Source: Corallococcus sp. 4LFB (GTDB taxonomy: Bacteria; Myxococcota; Myxococcia; Myxococcales; Myxococcaceae). Taken from it: a DNA stretch of 26,875 nucleotides. How positions within the stretch are numbered: the first letter of the stretch is position 1; the number at the start of each line of letters is the position of its first letter. The notes below the pieces were generated by a model, which ran no database searches, was not told where the DNA came from, and was given only the letters and a program-made list of their open reading frames with translations. The position numbers and the translations under genes were made by a program. Positions 9,831 to 15,832 of this stretch are shown here, in pieces. The stretch is from NCBI RefSeq assembly GCF_046520365.1, contig NZ_JBKGHJ010000051.1:1-26875 (forward strand). The letters are read 5' to 3'.

Positions 9831-10020
9831 GGCGGCGGCCACCGTATGTCGCGTGCCTGGGAGTGTCATGGTTTCCCGCCGGCGGGGTGGGGCGGAGGCG
9901 TGCACGGTTGGACGGAGCACGGGCTAACGGCTTCGCGCGCGGGCTATTCCCGGGCCTGTCCGTCCAGCCACACCGAGTGCCTTGACGCGGCGCCACGCGA
10001 CCCCCATCCTGCCGCGCCCC

Positions 10021-10671
10021 ATGCCTGTCCTACGTGGTGCCGTGACCTTTTCGCGCTTCCGGACCGAGCCGGCCAAGGATGCGCCGTCCGACGTCAAGCG
10101 CTGGCTGACCAAGGGACTCAAGTCCCATGCGTTCGAGCCCATCGACCGCCGCTCCGAGGAGGAGCGCGCCGCCGGTTTCGTGGAGCTGGAGGACCCGGAG
10201 TCCTCCGAGTTCGCCACCGGAAACCTCTTCTATGGCGAGTACGCCCTGTTCGGCTTCCGCATCGACACGCTGAAGGTGCCCGCGTCGATGATGAAGTCGG
10301 AGCTGGACAAGTGGTCCGCCGCCTTCGCCAGGGAGAACGGCCGGCCGCCCGCGCGCGCGGAGAAGAACAAGCAGCGCGCGGAGCTCAAGCAGCTCCTGCG
10401 TCAGCGCGCGGTGCCGCGCACCAGCGTGCTGGACGTGACGTGGAACCTCAAGACGCAGACGGTGCAGGTCTGGGCCGCGTCGCGCAAGACGGTGGATGAG
10501 ATCTGCGTGGCGCTGGAAGGCGCCCTGGCGGTGAAGGTGATTGGCATCACGCCCGCGTCCATGGCGCAGCGCGCGGGCATCGACGAGAAGGCCCTGGGCC
10601 CCACGGCGGAGCTCATTGGCCTGGACCTGCCGGCGACGGCTTCGGTGGAGGACACCCATGGCGAGGCGTGA
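10021..10671 (+). CDS. RdgC-like recombination-associated protein, N-terminal half.
   Basis: MPVLRGAVTFSRFRTEP… parallels the E. coli RdgC N-terminus (MLWFKNLMVYRLSRE). The downstream pattern also parallels RdgC residues 1–~165: …FEPID…GEYALFGFRIDTLKVPASMMKSELDKW… …RAVPRTSVLDVTWNLKTQTVQVWAASRKTVDEICVALEGAL. The upstream TTG at 9982 looks more like a −35 element than a start. Confidence 0.5.
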   Translation: MPVLRGAVTFSRFRTEPAKDAPSDVKRWLTKGLKSHAFEPIDRRSEEERAAGFVELEDPESSEFATGNLFYGEYALFGFRIDTLKVPASMMKSELDKWSAAFARENGRPPARAEKNKQRAELKQLLRQRAVPRTSVLDVTWNLKTQTVQVWAASRKTVDEICVALEGALAVKVIGITPASMAQRAGIDEKALGPTAELIGLDLPATASVEDTHGEA

Positions 10672-11347
10672 GCAGGCGAGGGAAGAGGCGGCGTTCGCCC
10701 GGGGCGATGTCGGCGTGGACGGCGTCGCCACCGAGGAGGAGAAGGACGAAGCCGAGGTCGAAAAGGGCAAGGCGCGCGAACAGCTGCTGCGCGGCCGCGC
10801 CTACCTGGGCCGCGAGTTCATGACGTGGCTGCTGTGGCGCTCGGAGTCGGGCGACCCGCTGGTGGAGTTCGACGGCGCGGGCGTCGTGGTCCTCTTCCTG
10901 GGCAAGGTGGTGCTGCGCGGCGTGGCGGGCGACGTCACGGAGATGAGCGCCAAGGGCACGCTGGCGCCGTATTCGGAGAACGTGCGCCACTCGCTGGACC
11001 GGGGCCTGCTGGTGTCCCAGGCGCGGCTGCGCATCTCCCACGGCGAGCGCGAATACGAAGTCACCCTCGATTCCGAGTTCCTGGACATCCGCGCCGCCAA
11101 GCTGCCCGCGCTCATGACCGAGGAAGAGGATGATCAGCTCTCCGAGCGGCTGGAGCTGACCGAGCAGCTCTCCGGGCTCGTGGACGCGCTGGTGCAGGAC
11201 TTCCTGCCCATGCGCGCCGGCCGCGCCTGGAGCAAGCAGGTGGTGCCCGCGATGAAGGCGTGGATGAAGGGCGAGGAGAAGGGCAGCGACGTGCTCTCCA
11301 AGGCCGCCCGCGCCCGGGGCCGCGACGCCCGGGCCGCCCGGGGCTGA
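10658..11347 (+). CDS. RdgC-like recombination-associated protein, C-terminal half. It overlaps the previous ORF by 14 nt in another frame.
   Basis: An acidic N-terminal stretch is followed by FMTWLLWRSESGDPLVEFDGAGVVVLFLGKVVLRG… and …ARLRISHGEREYEVTLDSEFLDIRAAKLPALMTEEEDDQLSERLELTEQLSGLVDALVQDFL. This parallels the RdgC C-terminal region (…LTEWVRSG… …[60 protein letters not shown]). Confidence 0.45.
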   Translation: MARREQAREEAAFARGDVGVDGVATEEEKDEAEVEKGKAREQLLRGRAYLGREFMTWLLWRSESGDPLVEFDGAGVVVLFLGKVVLRGVAGDVTEMSAKGTLAPYSENVRHSLDRGLLVSQARLRISHGEREYEVTLDSEFLDIRAAKLPALMTEEEDDQLSERLELTEQLSGLVDALVQDFLPMRAGRAWSKQVVPAMKAWMKGEEKGSDVLSKAARARGRDARAARG

Positions 11348-11348
11348 A

Positions 11349-12110
11349 TCACGGTCCAGGCGCTGTACGTCCGCCAATCACCGGGAAGCGCTCGTAGACC
11401 CGCTTGAGCGCTTCCAGGTGGGCGGGATTGTCGTAATCGAGCGGTGCCTCCGTGAGCCGCACGATCCACCCGCCTGACGGCGTGCGCCGCGCCCGCGTGA
11501 GCAGTTCGGCATCGCGAGCCGGCTCCGGGAACCCGATGACCTCCGCGGCAGCCGCGGACCAGTAATTCAGCCACCCGAGGAAAGAGGGAGTCTCCGCCCT
11601 GGGGCTCTTCTCCGGAAGGTTGAGCATGGGAAGCCCCCGGGGTGAACGCTCGGGGTCGTCTGGCGAGCGGCGGAACTGCTGCGCGACCTCTGCGCCGTAG
11701 CCATACGGCGACGCGTGACCCCAGAACGAACGTGCCCCCTCCGCCACGGCCTCGAGCAGCGCCGCCGCTGCCGCGACCGCGGGCCCATCCAGTGGCAGTT
11801 TTGCGTGCACTTCAAGTTGGGGCTGTCCGCCTGGACTGGAGCGCCCTGAGCTTTCAATTCCCCAGACCGTCACGGGGTGACGTTCGTCCCCGTTGCATAC
11901 GACCGGGAATCCACCGTCCTCGATTCTTTCCACGAGCCAGGTGTCCCGCTGTGGCAACGCGATGGGGCGCCCACTTTCGCCAACTTCCCACTCCAGGCGT
12001 AAGCCAGGGAGCGCATTCTCCATCCCATGGATGATATTGAGCGTGCGGCTGTCTTTGCCCGCGAGGGCAGGGGCATAGGTGATGAGTGTCAGTTTTTTTT
12101 GCGTGCTCAT
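11349..12110 (-). CDS. Putative cognate immunity protein for the upstream lipoprotein nuclease toxin. Its ATG overlaps the toxin stop as ATGA.
   Basis: 253 aa with no signal peptide. Its start codon is 4-nt-coupled (ATGA) to the toxin stop. Its 5' end lies in the same low-GC island as the toxin C-terminal domain. The family is not recognised with certainty (possibly Imm52/DUF5953-like). Confidence 0.5.
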   Translation of the reverse strand: MSTQKKLTLITYAPALAGKDSRTLNIIHGMENALPGLRLEWEVGESGRPIALPQRDTWLVERIEDGGFPVVCNGDERHPVTVWGIESSGRSSPGGQPQLEVHAKLPLDGPAVAAAAALLEAVAEGARSFWGHASPYGYGAEVAQQFRRSPDDPERSPRGLPMLNLPEKSPRAETPSFLGWLNYWSAAAAEVIGFPEPARDAELLTRARRTPSGGWIVRLTEAPLDYDNPAHLEALKRVYERFPVIGGRTAPGP

Positions 12111-13036
12111 CGTTTACATTCTGTGACGACGACATCGAGATTGGGAAGTTCTTCGAGCAGCGCGGTTTTATGCGCCTGGGTGCTCACTCCCACGACGAAG
12201 CCATATCCGCATGCCTCTGCGACGTCTCGCTCCTGCTTCAATTGTTTCACTTCCTTCCTGATCTCCTGTTCCTGGACAAAATCATTGTACGAATCAAATT
12301 GATGCGTCTTGATCTCCCACAGTTTGCGGACACCGATTTGCAGTGCATCGAAGCGCACGCCACCCACGAGCACGTCCATCCCGGGATAACGGTTTGGTGG
12401 GAACTTGTCGGCGCACTCGTTATGCGAGTCATCCTCGCCCGCGTGTGGCACGGGAACAGGCTCGCAACTGGCACGGCCCGTCCGGCCCACAAGGACAGGG
12501 GGCACCGGGGGCTGCCTGCCCTGGCCTGCTGGCTCCGGTTCCAGCCTGGGCTTCGGCTTCGCTACAGTATCCCGGGACGCGACCCTCGCCCCTCGTGAGG
12601 TCCCTGCTTCCTCCGGGTAGAGGTGGCGCAGTTCATACGCATCCAGTTCCTCCTTGATGGCGACGGCGACCACCACCGCTCCCAGCACGATGACGGCTCC
12701 CACGGCGATCTCAGGCGCCGCCAGCACGCAGAACCCGAGCCCCACGGTCGCGGCATCGACGGAGGCGACGGTGCATCTTCCCGTGGTGTCGTGGAACTCG
12801 ACCCGGTCGTGGTCGAGTGCTCGATAGCACCGCTCCACCAGCGCGGGCCAAGGCTGGGACGCTTCGCGGACAACGCACCGTCCATCATCCCTCCAGGGGA
12901 GCGCCGCCGCTCGTCGCAGGTTTGCATTCCTCGTATTGCGGACCGTTGACGCTCTGGGACGCGGCTCCGTCGTGGCGCAGGCCGAGAAAACGAGCAGAAG
13001 CCAAAGCGCGGTGCATGTCCGGAGACTCATGGTCAT
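12107..13036 (-). CDS. Polymorphic-toxin-like lipoprotein with a C-terminal PD-(D/E)xK nuclease domain (SitA-like). An alternative ATG is at 13030; the ORF track extends it to 13150.
   Basis: The type II signal peptide is MTMSLRTCTALWLLLVFSAC|ATTE (lipobox Cys, no Asp at +2). A central hydrophobic segment follows. The C-terminal ~110 aa carry GMDVLVGGVRFDALQIGVRKLWEIKTHQFD, a D…(D/E)xK nuclease signature. This domain is encoded by DNA that is clearly lower in GC than the rest of the window. Confidence 0.55.
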   Translation of the reverse strand: MTMSLRTCTALWLLLVFSACATTEPRPRASTVRNTRNANLRRAAALPWRDDGRCVVREASQPWPALVERCYRALDHDRVEFHDTTGRCTVASVDAATVGLGFCVLAAPEIAVGAVIVLGAVVVAVAIKEELDAYELRHLYPEEAGTSRGARVASRDTVAKPKPRLEPEPAGQGRQPPVPPVLVGRTGRASCEPVPVPHAGEDDSHNECADKFPPNRYPGMDVLVGGVRFDALQIGVRKLWEIKTHQFDSYNDFVQEQEIRKEVKQLKQERDVAEACGYGFVVGVSTQAHKTALLEELPNLDVVVTECKR

Positions 13037-13039
13037 CTC

Positions 13040-13083
13040 TTCACAACAAGCAAAAGCCTCCAGGGCCTTGGACCCGGAGGCTT
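13040..13083 (-). terminator. Rho-independent terminator between the Cys-rich peptide gene and the toxin gene.
   Basis: The minus-strand RNA reads GCCUCCGGGUCCAAGGCCCUGGAGGC, a 9–10 bp GC stem with one bulge. It is followed directly by UUUUGCUUGUUGU, and then by the toxin RBS and ATG. Confidence 0.5.
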
Positions 13084-13094
13084 CTGGATGCGCT

Positions 13095-13316
13095 CTACGG
13101 GTTGATGCAACGCCAGACGCCGCAGGAGCCCTCGCCGTCGCCACAGTCATACTGGCTGTAGCACGGCTTGCAGCTGGCCGAGCAGATCATCCGGACCGCC
13201 TGGGTGTCGCTCGTCTCCGACGCCGGGCCGGGAACCATGGCCAGGGCCGAGCCCGCCATGGCGCCGATGATCAGGGCAAGGTCGGGAACGGACCGCTTCA
13301 GTCGCGACGGCTTCAT
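13095..13316 (-). CDS. Small secreted cysteine-rich peptide. It is a 73-aa precursor with a signal peptide and a six-Cys C-terminal core.
   Basis: MKPSRLKRSVPDLALIIGAMAGSALA|MVPGPASETSDTQAVRMICSASCKPCYSQYDCGDGEGSCGVWRCINP. A GGAGGAAGC ribosome-binding site lies 4 nt before the ATG at 13316. The signal peptide has an AxA cleavage site. Six Cys fall within the last 26 residues. Confidence 0.45.
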   Translation of the reverse strand: MKPSRLKRSVPDLALIIGAMAGSALAMVPGPASETSDTQAVRMICSASCKPCYSQYDCGDGEGSCGVWRCINP

Positions 13317-13553
13317 GCTTCCTCCGGGGGGAATGGGGCCGGAGCATCCGGGCCCACACAGCGAGGGCATTCGACCAGACGCGCAGAGGCGATCCAAGTT
13401 CGACGCTGCTCCAGTCTGGCGCGCTGTCCGAACCGCAATGGAGCAAGCGGCCGCGCCAGTCCGGCGCGGTGCCTGTCTGTCCCAGGGCGGAAGGCAGAGG
13501 CACGGGACTCGCAATGACTCGCGGCCAATCCCTCCCGCCCGAGCAGGTGTCCC

Positions 13554-15832
13554 GTGCCGTCCGCCCCCAGCACCGAAGCCATCCAGCGCATCTCCCTGAA
13601 GAACCGCGAGTACGCCTACATCGAGGACGCCAACCGCGGCGTCGTGCTGATGGAGGTGGGCCCGCGCGTGCTGACGCTGGAGGCGCACCTGACGCTCGTG
13701 GCGAAGGAGCGGATGGTGGAGGTGGGCGCCGGCAGCTGGTGCGTGGTGCGCAACCCCGTGGTGCGCGTGGACGGGCAGGTGGCGCTGGACGACTTCGGCC
13801 AGGCCCGCGTCGCGGTGGGCGACCGCGAGGTCCGCGTGGGCCCGAAGGTGTTCCCGCTGTACCCCGGCGAGGAGCTGGAGGGCGACATCGTCCCGGAGTA
13901 CGTCCTGGGCGTGTCGGAGGCGCTGCGGCTGCGCGCGCTCACCGCCTTCATGGACACCAGCGCCCCGGACGCGCCCGCCGCCGCGAGGCCGGTGACGAGT
14001 GGCTGGTGCGCGGCCCCGGCCGCTACGTGCCAGGCGAGGCCGTCACCGTCGTGTCGCTGGAGAAGGCTCGCGTCCTCAAGGAGACCGAGTACTGCGTCAT
14101 CCTCAATCCCGTGGACCGCGCCACCGGCCGCGTCCAGGAGGGCCGCCGCAAGGTCGTCTCCGGGCCGGACGTCTTCTTCCTGGAGCCCGGCGAAGCGCTG
14201 GAAGGGGACGTGCGCCGCAAGCACGTCCTGTCGGAGCTCCAGGGGCTGAAGCTCCAGGCGCTGGATGACCTCTCCGAGAACGAGGGCGGCGAGCCCCGCG
14301 CGCGCAAGGCCGGTGACACGTGGATCGTCCGCGGCCCGCGCACCTACGTGCCCAGCGAGAAGGTCCTCATCCACCGGGAGATCTCCGCGCTGTCGCTGGG
14401 GCAGGGGGAGGGCCTCTACGTGCGCGATTTGCGCTCGGGCAAGGTGTCGCTCGTCCAGGGGCCGTGCCAGTTCATGCCGGAGGCGCACCAGGAGCTGCAC
14501 GAGAAGCGCCTGTCCCCGGACGCGGAGGCGCTGCTGGGCCTTGCTTCGCCGCTGCCGGCTTCGGCGGACGCGAAGGACGTCCGCGCGCCGCGCCCCGCGA
14601 CCCAGGCGGAGAAGGGGGACCGCACGCGCGCCATCGTGCTGCGCATCGAGGACAACACGGCGGTCCTCATCAACGACTTCGAGACCAACCACGCGCGCGT
14701 GGAGTTCGGCCCCGCGAAGGTGATGCTGCGTCCGTACGAGGACGTCACCGTGTTGGACCTGTCCGGCAGCACGCCCAAGCGCCCGCGCCAGCTCAAGGTG
14801 TTGATGCTGCGGCTGGGGCCGGACTTCGCCACGGACCTCTTCGAGGTGGCCACGCGCGACCACGCGCGGCTGCGCATCAAGCTCTCCTACAAGTGGCAGT
14901 TCGACGTGCAGGGCGACCCGGAGAAGGACAAGGCCATCTTCCGGGTGAACGACTTCATCGGGTACGTGTGTGAGAACCTCGCGTCGCGCATCCGCCAGGT
15001 CGCCGCGGAGAACGAGTTCGAGACCTTCCACAAGAACGCCAGCGTGCTCATCCGCCGCGCCATCTTCGGCATGGACGACGCGGGCCGCGCGCGCAAGGAC
15101 CGCCTCTTCTCCGAGAACCAGCTGCGCATCATCGACATCGACATCAAGGACATCGCCCCCGTCGACGAGAAGACGGCCCTGAAGCTGCGCGAGGCCATCG
15201 ACACCAACATCCAGATCCAACTGGACGCCTCACGCCAGGAGGCCCAGGCCGCCGCGGAGCTCAAGCGCATCCGCAGCGAGGAGGAGAAGCAGCTCGCGGA
15301 CATCGCCAGCCACCGCAAGTCGGAAGCCGAACGCCAATCCCTCATCGAACTGCAGAATCGCAATCACCAGCTGGAGACGCTCAGCCGCGCCAAGGTGGAG
15401 GCGGAGGCGCAGCTGGAGCGGGCCCGCGTGGAGAGCGAGGAGGCCCTGGCCCGCGCCGAGTCCGACGCCCGCGCCTCCCGCATCCGCGCCGAGGCGGAGG
15501 CCGAGCGTGAACGGCTCACCACCCAGGTGACGCTGGAGCGCCAGCAGCGCCTCAACGACCTGGAGGTGGAGCGCCAGTCCCGGCTCGCGGAGGTGGAGGC
15601 CTCGCAGTTCCGCCAGCGCGTGGAGTCCCTGGGCGGCGGGGAGAACTTCGTGAAGGCCGTGGCCGCGCAGGCCCAGGCCGCAGTCGTCGGAGGCCTGGAC
15701 AAGGTCGTCTTCCTGCCCAGCGGCTCCAACCTCAACCTCTTCGACGCCATGCAGGGGCTCCTGGGCCCCGGAGGCCAGCCGCGCCTGTCCGCCCACCACA
15801 CCCCGACACCGCCCGGAGACACCTCCGCCTGA
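13554..15832 (+). CDS. Major vault protein (MVP) homologue of about 760 aa. It is interrupted by a single-base frameshift near 13975–13990: 13554–13986 reads in one frame and 13987–15832 in the frame of the ORF 13469..15832.
   Basis: Direct residue-level similarity to vertebrate MVP runs along the whole length. MVP repeat domains: ISLKNREYAYIEDANRGVVLMEVGP…, then …VFPLYPGEELEGDIVPEYVL… (compare human FPLYPGEVLEKDITPLQVV), then AGDEWLVRGPGRYVP (human AGDEWLFEGPGTYIP). Further matches include EYCVILNPV…FFLEPGEALEG…, …AGDTWIVRGPRTYVPSEKV…, and GEGLYVRDLRSGKVSLVQGP (human EGIYVQDVKTGKVRAV). The shoulder domain reads VLMLRLGPDFATDLFEVATRDHARLRIKLSYKWQFDV (human [36 protein letters not shown]). A long coiled-coil cap helix follows. 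The C-terminal cap-ring motif is GSNLNLFDAMQGLLGPGGQP (human [22 protein letters not shown]). Confidence 0.75.

Follow-up and report, generated by a model that had tools for sequence, protein, structure and literature searches.

Two described systems come closest to the locus reported here. In the first, SitA/SitI (PMC5562445, PMC8546572), a lipoprotein toxin sorted to the outer membrane (OM) is transferred by TraAB and enters the cytoplasm of a neighbouring cell. A length of about 375 aa is given for SitA escort domains; the query regions used were 507 aa for SitA1 and 441 aa for SitA3, and most of the homologues listed measure 430-784 aa (PMC5562445), the conserved N-terminus of SitA3 alone accounting for 441 aa, with most untruncated SitA3 proteins at about 430-607 aa and a sitB gene present with sitA3 in DK1622 (PMC5562445). 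In one functional allele of SitA3 the toxin domain is Tox-REase-5 (PF15648) (PMC8546572, Fig. 3 legend), and the tested alleles of SitA4 and SitA6, which are non-modular families, all carry AHH (PF14412) nucleases. The second system is TseT-TsiT (PA3907-PA3908) of Pseudomonas aeruginosa, an effector-immunity pair of a type VI secretion system (T6SS); TseT and its TseTBg/Burkholderia homologues are DNases, some of them also RNases, which are partnered by Imm52 proteins and whose activity needs conserved D and K residues (PMC9990079, bioRxiv 10.1101/835710). Here we analyse a stretch of 26,875 nucleotides from Corallococcus sp. 4LFB (contig NZ_JBKGHJ010000051.1, hereafter the window), in which two genes of the minus strand, gene A (13036..12107, 309 aa) and gene B (12110..11349, 253 aa), very probably constitute a two-gene polymorphic toxin-immunity cassette, made up of a lipoprotein nuclease toxin and a coupled DUF5953 immunity protein.

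Gene A and gene B can be taken as real genes in view of their strong Pfam matches and many database homologues: the C-terminus of gene A matches DUF6310 (E 1.5e-58, 196.7 bits, cut-off 27) and gene B matches DUF5953 (E 2.6e-113, 378 bits, cut-off 25), and each has about 900-1000 homologues, the gene A set of 879 being conserved over the full length. The stop codon of gene A overlaps the start codon of gene B as ATGA (12107..12110, minus strand), an arrangement that points to translational coupling. A scan of species-representative genomes returned 339 loci with relatives of the cassette, and pairing was counted in the best 80 of these: a DUF5953 gene lies directly 3' of the gene A relative in every one (80/80), with the exact ATGA junction in 73. 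The best 80 loci belong to Corallococcus, Myxococcus, Pyxidicoccus, Archangium, Cystobacter, Vitiosangium and Citreicoccus, all genomes of the Myxococcaceae/Archangiaceae type; one record among them is labelled 'Comamonas', and this label is probably wrong. A single genome contains up to seven copies, some of them in tandem arrays.

The two genes also diversify together. In a Mantel test on the pairwise divergences of 69 complete A/B pairs, the toxin domain of gene A tracks gene B (r 0.52, p <= 0.0005), as against coefficients of 0.14 for the N-terminal domain, 0.03 for the hydrophobic segment and 0.05 for the linker, and the N-terminal and toxin domains of gene A are themselves nearly uncorrelated (r 0.16). 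Sliding windows place the onset of co-variation with gene B at about residue 200 of gene A, in a region where the helix formed by residues 246-275 is hypervariable; on the side of gene B it is the N-terminal half that co-varies, the C-terminal third being conserved and without co-variation. The co-varying regions are residues 201-300 of gene A and 1-130 of gene B. To judge from these alignments, the pattern is that expected of a toxin-domain-plus-immunity unit which recombines and co-evolves independently of its carrier.

Structural comparison gives both partners a common counterpart. Gene A and gene B match, independently of each other, one chain apiece in the crystal of the TseT-TsiT effector-immunity pair, and Foldseek places the same two TseT chains first, with probabilities of 0.99 and 0.92. 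The PD-(D/E)xK fold predicted for the toxin domain of gene A is nearest to that of TseT and retains an intact D...(D/E)xK catalytic motif, and gene B, which adjoins this Tox-REase-5-like toxin gene, has a predicted TsiT-like fold. On these models, the DUF6310 domain of gene A and the T6SS DNase TseT (Tox-REase-5) are remotely related in structure. The two systems have in common the PD-(D/E)xK core with its D...ExK motif, and in both the toxin and immunity genes lie side by side. They differ in several respects: sequence identity is about 9-13% and neither protein of the cassette passes the Pfam model; DUF6310 carries four conserved cysteines; and the cassette has a Sec/lipoprotein signal, whereas TseT is loaded into the T6SS through PAAR and a chaperone. 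DUF6310 and Tox-REase-5, like DUF5953 and Imm52, are on the modelled structures distinct families related by fold only. A preliminary description of the sequence had looked to the Tox-REase and PD-(D/E)xK families for the C-terminus; at the level of Pfam this led to DUF6310 and not to Tox-REase-5, and the kinship it anticipated appears in the TseT-like structure. Other PD-(D/E)xK toxins are more remote. The CdiA-CT/CdiI pairs of EC869, Yersinia and Burkholderia show similarity far below that of TseT, and they depend on type V secretion and contact-dependent inhibition for delivery and have other immunity folds. The PAAR-linked T6SS toxin families of M. xanthus (MXAN_0049/0050 and homologues, PMC12077131) were considered and set aside as a different system, PAAR-coupled and without a lipobox.

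Both halves of gene A are reused in other proteins. A profile-free search with the toxin domain alone against 1.84 billion representative proteins yielded 200 proteins, with DUF6310 always at the extreme C-terminus of hosts that range from 128 to 1130 aa. The N-termini found among 84 DUF6310 representatives include eCIS_core/DUF4157 (16; eCIS, extracellular contractile injection system), Transglut_core (6), DUF4280/PAAR-like (2), LysM (2) and CBM_2 (1), and many of the other representatives are short lipoproteins. For instance, a metagenomic locus has the order vgrG - DUF4280-TM-DUF6310 - DUF5953 - DUF5953 (TM, transmembrane helix), the canonical layout of a T6SS effector and its immunity genes, and an eCIS_core-DUF6310 gene is likewise followed directly by a DUF5953 gene; downstream of a transglutaminase-DUF6310 protein lie other small genes. 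In the loci L084 (3658-5212) and L085 (2048-3602), the second of the two DUF5953-like genes after the DUF4280-TM-DUF6310 effector is a weak match and may represent an immunity gene that is orphan or arose by duplication.

The carrier half behaves in the same way. Searching with residues 1-140 of gene A retrieved many proteins of 227-244 aa that have the same lipobox, four-cysteine domain and hydrophobic helix; in these proteins (P0402, P0408, P0410-P0416 and others) the module is joined to an unrelated C-terminus of about 65 aa with 6-7 cysteines, following the pattern ...RCxDHYVxC...CQxCxxxCxRxGxWPxExNxxPCPG and without a Pfam match. At the loci of P0412 and P0413 (L081 4001-5289 and L082 4001-5295), the gene downstream is a different one, tightly coupled or overlapping, and encodes an all-helical protein of about 190 aa that also has no match in Pfam. 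From sequence and arrangement, the cysteine-rich C-terminus and the helical protein are a candidate new toxin/immunity pair. Read in the sense of Zhang et al. 2012, DUF6310 stands C-terminal to several N-terminal architectures (lipoprotein, eCIS_core, DUF4280/PAAR-like, Transglut_core, LysM and CBM_2), one N-terminal module carries alternative C-termini, each with its own downstream gene (two loci inspected), and the toxin domain and gene B co-diversify. The locus thus fits the operational definition of a polymorphic toxin system by virtue of its pairing, its co-variation and the modular reuse of both its halves. The polymorphic toxin-immunity arrangement put forward in the preliminary description, together with the recurrence of the same N-terminus on a different C-terminus, is borne out by the TseT-TsiT fold matches, the co-variation, the T6SS and eCIS_core contexts and the reuse of the carrier. 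In four homologues (P0395, P0397, P0409 and P0444) the linker or portions of the toxin domain are missing through internal deletions; these have the look of decayed or recombinant copies, which are common at polymorphic toxin loci.

Using an alignment of 41 homologues and the AlphaFold model, we divided gene A (12107..13036) into successive parts. The type II signal peptide (aa 1-20, 12977..13036) ends in the lipobox VFSAC; its sequence is MTMSLRTCTALWLLLVFSAC, followed by ATTE, so that the protein reads C-A-T-T-E-P-R from the predicted lipidated Cys20, with Ala at +2 and Arg at +7. Cys20 is invariant in the 41 homologues. The true start of gene A is probably the second ATG (M3, 13030), since M3 is nearly invariant in the alignment and a motif resembling a ribosome-binding site (RBS), GGAGG/GAAGAG, lies 6-9 nt 5' of it at many loci. 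The N-terminal carrier domain (aa 21-94, 12755..12976), presumed to be periplasmic, begins with a short variable tether (residues 21-30) of low model confidence, predicted to be disordered, and continues as a small, disulfide-type domain (about 30-94) with invariant Cys54, Cys70 and Cys88, plus Cys103 at the edge of the following helix; the predicted local distance difference test (pLDDT) score is 76-91 over aa 30-80. Hydropathy then defines a TM-like segment (aa 95-128, 12653..12754), which contains ...GLGFCVLAAPEIAVGAVIVLGAVVVAVAI, has invariant G99, G101, P108-E109, G113 and G119, and is the best-conserved region of gene A (mean pairwise identity 0.78). Within the family the segment IAVGAVIVLGAVVVAVAI is of TM grade, with a Kyte-Doolittle 19-residue mean of about 2.7-2.8 in representatives (about 2.7 in P0245). 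The juxtamembrane helix and proline-rich linker (aa 129-188, 12473..12652) have a pLDDT below 50 and the lowest conservation in gene A (0.60). The C-terminal DUF6310 toxin domain (aa 189-309, 12110..12472) contains the putative catalytic residues D210/D221, D230 and E241-x-K243, the conserved cysteines C191, C208, C276 and C307, and the hypervariable helix. The motif ...GVRFDALQIGVRKLWEIKTH... is present, and D230, E241 and K243 are wholly or almost invariant, even in distant DUF6310 domains. Across diverse DUF6310 domains, the equivalents of G200, D221, F229-D230, K243 and C276 are invariant and those of C191, H205, C208, A209-D210, L239-W240-E241 and C307 nearly invariant, and gene A has them all. 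The coordinates and sequence features given in the preliminary description, namely the lipobox cysteine followed by ATTE, the C-terminal PD-(D/E)xK-like module and the ATGA overlap with a gene of 253 aa, were all recovered on the minus strand. The middle region that it called hydrophobic and 'escort-like' is indeed strongly hydrophobic, but it is a TM-grade helix, and a stop-transfer segment would conflict with simple OM sorting.

These features suggest how the cassette may act, and from them we infer nuclease activity, neutralisation by binding and delivery from cell to cell. Toxin and immunity protein would be made together, so that the producer would be protected. The gene B protein would bind the nuclease in an allele-specific manner and neutralise it, the likely contact being one of the toxin's hypervariable helix with the N-terminal half of gene B; recipients without the matching gene B allele would suffer cleavage of nucleic acids in the cytoplasm. 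The hydrophobic helix would take the nuclease across the inner membrane (IM) of the target cell, or would anchor it there, as in PAAR-TM-toxin effectors, and the many diverged paralogues in each genome would be alleles for discriminating kin or competitors, as sitAI loci are. In effectors of the Tse6 type, TM helices are thought to insert into the IM of the recipient and to carry the toxin into its cytoplasm. Gene A resembles the Tse6/prePAAR effectors in having a hydrophobic TM helix between a delivery module and a toxin domain predicted to act in the cytoplasm, and DUF6310 occurs in the same layout in the vgrG-linked locus. More generally, of 66 distant DUF6310 proteins that have sufficient sequence upstream, 30, among them the DUF4280/PAAR-like T6SS effector, show a comparable but non-homologous hydrophobic helix at a distance of about 30-130 residues before the domain, irrespective of their N-terminus. 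Gene A differs from the PAAR-TM-toxin effectors in carrying a lipoprotein signal and a small cysteine domain in place of a PAAR-like head, and because of this replacement its helix would meet the Sec translocon of the producer itself.

Several observations weigh against a delivered, TseT-like toxin of polymorphic type. With respect to topology, helix 95-128 in a Sec-exported lipoprotein should act as a stop-transfer anchor, for which retention in the IM is predicted, and the nuclease of the producer may stay on the cytoplasmic side of that membrane; the juxtamembrane segment with its positive charge (in the group with the alternative C-terminus, KEELDAYERRASRERA) is consistent with stop-transfer and a C-terminus-in topology. 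With respect to the relationship with TseT-TsiT, gene A has no match to Tox-REase-5 (PF15648) at E <= 1, and none of 84 DUF6310 representatives has one at E <= 0.01; gene B reaches Imm52 (PF15579) only at E 0.12 (12.4 bits, cut-off 25), and one of 41 family members at E 0.056. Profile searches of PDB sequences were empty and did not find TseT, and phmmer searches of both proteins and hidden Markov model profiles against PDB sequences gave nothing useful; PHROGs likewise gave no match. The models themselves are AlphaFold predictions from 41-sequence alignments, and they are poor for the central part of gene A. Finally, the N- and C-terminal parts are both conserved within the 305-aa family, so that the 'polymorphism' is mostly allelic, plus one alternative C-terminus.

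How the toxin would reach its target is the point on which explanations diverge, and the one that survives best alongside the general toxin-immunity account is that the two genes are a bona fide SitA/SitI pair, sorted to the OM, transferred by TraAB and entering the cytoplasm of the neighbour, within either one of the six published families (SitA5 or SitA7) or a seventh, compact one. We consider this possible, though on balance doubtful. The likeness to SitA/SitI is extensive. In Myxococcus, OM lipoproteins have neither Lys at +2 nor Ala at +7 (PMC5562445), and the lipobox of gene A conforms to this rule, so that the OM is predicted; as in SitA, a short, variable and disordered tether follows. 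As in SitA/SitI, a family-defining N-terminal carrier bears swappable C-terminal domains, here predicted nucleases, a gene for a predicted cytoplasmic immunity protein lies immediately downstream in the same operon, and many diverged copies occur per genome, occasionally at a prophage location. The carrier recurs with a different C-terminus, each of the best 80 loci belongs to a genome of the Myxococcaceae/Archangiaceae type in which SitA/SitI is found, and Tox-REase-5 is a proven SitA3 cargo (PMC8546572).

The differences are nevertheless substantial. Some 165 aa, including a TM-grade helix, precede the toxin domain of gene A, as compared with about 375-507 aa in a SitA escort, and there is no sitB. 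The family member of C. coralloides DSM 2259 (COCOR_05824) is absent from the published homologue lists of both SitA1/2 and SitA3 (PMC5562445), and as judged from these 2017 lists and from protein size the N-terminus of gene A is without homology to those of SitA1/2/3. SitA4 and SitA6 carry AHH toxins, unlike the DUF6310 domain of gene A with its PD-(D/E)xK fold; DUF6310 is not among the named SitA toxin domains that were compared, and no NCBIfam model matches gene A or gene B. From SitA5 and SitA7, gene A is set apart by size alone (about 165 aa versus an escort of about 375 aa). In addition, IM lipoproteins are reported not to be exchanged by outer-membrane exchange (OME) (PMC5562445), and a TM-grade helix that should retain the protein in the IM is in conflict with the OM localisation needed for OME. 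The preliminary description had derived OM sorting from the absence of Asp at +2, a rule of E. coli that is not relevant here; its prediction nonetheless agrees with the Myxococcus rule for the lipobox, whereas the helix predicts the IM. Its comparison with SitA/SitI stands for the architecture and for the prophage association and falls short on size, on the absence of SitA1/2/3 homology and on the TM helix. Two of its more specific proposals failed: the published lists, from both of which COCOR_05824 is missing, show no homology of the N-terminus to SitA1/2/3 escorts, and a size of about 300 aa does not fit a SitA3-like family lacking sitB, given the 441 aa of the SitA3 N-terminus alone and the sitB that accompanies sitA3 in DK1622. 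Judged on sequence, the cassette is sitAI-like in its genetic logic and apparently lies outside SitA1/2, SitA3, SitA4 and SitA6. By analogy, TraAB outer-membrane exchange would be the most plausible of the known delivery routes, an assignment that we make tentatively. With similar reserve, one might picture a compact seventh SitA-like family, in which a carrier of about 165 aa with its own TM helix would insert into the recipient IM without hijacking an import system, or else a new delivery route for IM-anchored lipoprotein toxins.

An unlikely alternative is that the genes form an IM-anchored toxin-antitoxin or abortive-infection module, the periplasmic N-domain serving as sensor or anchor and the cytoplasmic nuclease being held by gene B until its release upon envelope stress or phage attack. 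The signal peptide, TM helix and positive juxtamembrane segment predict a C-terminal domain in the cytoplasm beside a cytoplasmic partner, for which tight translational coupling would be essential; other DUF6310 proteins join domains of extracytoplasmic type (CBM_2, LysM, transglutaminase) to a TM helix, and PADLOC reports a weak match of gene B to the candidate system PDC-M17B (E 8e-4). However, PADLOC has no defence-system model that matches gene A, and DUF6310 and DUF5953 occur in export contexts, namely an unambiguous T6SS locus (vgrG, PAAR-like) and a position behind eCIS_core; the 5-7 diverged paralogues per genome, the co-variation and the swapping of C-termini are the signature of discrimination between cells and not of a sensor. 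Equally improbable is an interbacterial toxin that travels by another route (OM vesicles, release by lysis or an unrecognised contact-dependent pathway) and whose helix then inserts into the target IM: the toxin-immunity nature of the pair is strongly supported and the TM-plus-DUF6310 module is common to gene A and the PAAR-like T6SS effector, but no secretion-system genes lie beside the cassette in the window, T6SS and eCIS cargo is not loaded by a Sec/lipoprotein signal, and no particular route has direct support.

Returning to the toxin-immunity cassette, its distribution bears marks of mobility. One copy, on the IMG/VR contig L083, lies between a phage head module (portal, protease and capsid) and genes for DUF2381 and a Ser/Thr kinase. 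The order A-B-DUF2381-kinase is repeated at 10 or more genome loci, of which one (L069) has a capsid gene upstream, and suggests that a recurrent prophage-like element carries the toxin-immunity cassette. The DUF2381 gene (a Myxococcus paralogous family) and the kinase gene follow the cassette at 5053-7727 in L083 and at about 5.7-8.4 kb in L002, L005, L015, L016, L032, L034, L041, L069, L075 and L080. In the window, the cassette is atypical in composition and its GC content at third codon positions (GC3) is foreign: GC3 is 0.71 and 0.73 in the two genes and 0.63 in the toxin domain, compared with 0.91-0.98 in neighbouring genes, and overall GC falls to about 0.62 across 11.5-13 kb. The region around the cassette is syntenic with C. 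interemptor (L001) at 87-93% nucleotide identity, and in other genomes the flanks differ. The DNA upstream and downstream of non-syntenic cassettes shows no conservation, the RBS being the only common element; some Archangiaceae subgroups have about 90 nt of upstream sequence in common and a hairpin 3' of gene B.

On either side, the cassette is bounded by a convergent gene that ends at 11347 and by an open reading frame (ORF) of 73 aa (13316..13095, minus strand). In the window the cassette has a vault-like gene, a peptidase gene and an RdgC-like gene as neighbours, and the adjoining genes include neither secretion-system nor mobile-element genes. The 73-aa ORF has a signal-peptide-like N-terminus, a six-cysteine C-terminus (CSASCKPCYSQYDCGDGEGSCGVWRCINP), a host-like GC3 of 0.91 and no Pfam match, and is followed by a 14-bp GC-rich terminator-like hairpin (13051-13086, minus strand); it may encode a small secreted or bacteriocin-like peptide. 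As a part of the cassette it was ruled out, being found only in the syntenic C. interemptor locus (79%) and having host-like GC3 and a strong terminator hairpin of its own. At 13469-15832 on the plus strand, directly upstream of the cassette, lies a bacterial gene homologous to the major vault protein of eukaryotes, with MVP_shoulder (E 3.6e-45) and Vault repeat domains, which flanks the cassette also in C. interemptor and in C. carmarthensis (L006). On the other side, an ORF at 9982-10671 (plus strand) matches the N-terminal half of RdgC and overlaps an ORF in another frame (10541-11347, plus strand), which has high GC3 and no Pfam match and stops, convergently, 2 nt from the stop codon of gene B. 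These two ORFs may belong to a single gene that is divided through a frameshift or a mis-called start.

Neither DUF6310 nor DUF5953 is named in any paper of the literature searched. Through the present analysis both gain testable roles, the former as a Tox-REase-5-like nuclease toxin domain and the latter as an Imm52-like immunity protein. The TM helix that recurs immediately before the nuclease domain, in lipoproteins as well as in PAAR-like and transglutaminase proteins, offers a handle on how toxins cross the IM of their targets, and the presence in one protein of a lipobox that predicts the OM and a helix of stop-transfer grade is a paradox that is experimentally tractable. With 339 loci and up to seven copies per genome, this large family would represent a missing part of the myxobacterial self-identity repertoire, apparently beyond SitA1/2 and SitA3 and with no match to SitA4 or SitA6.

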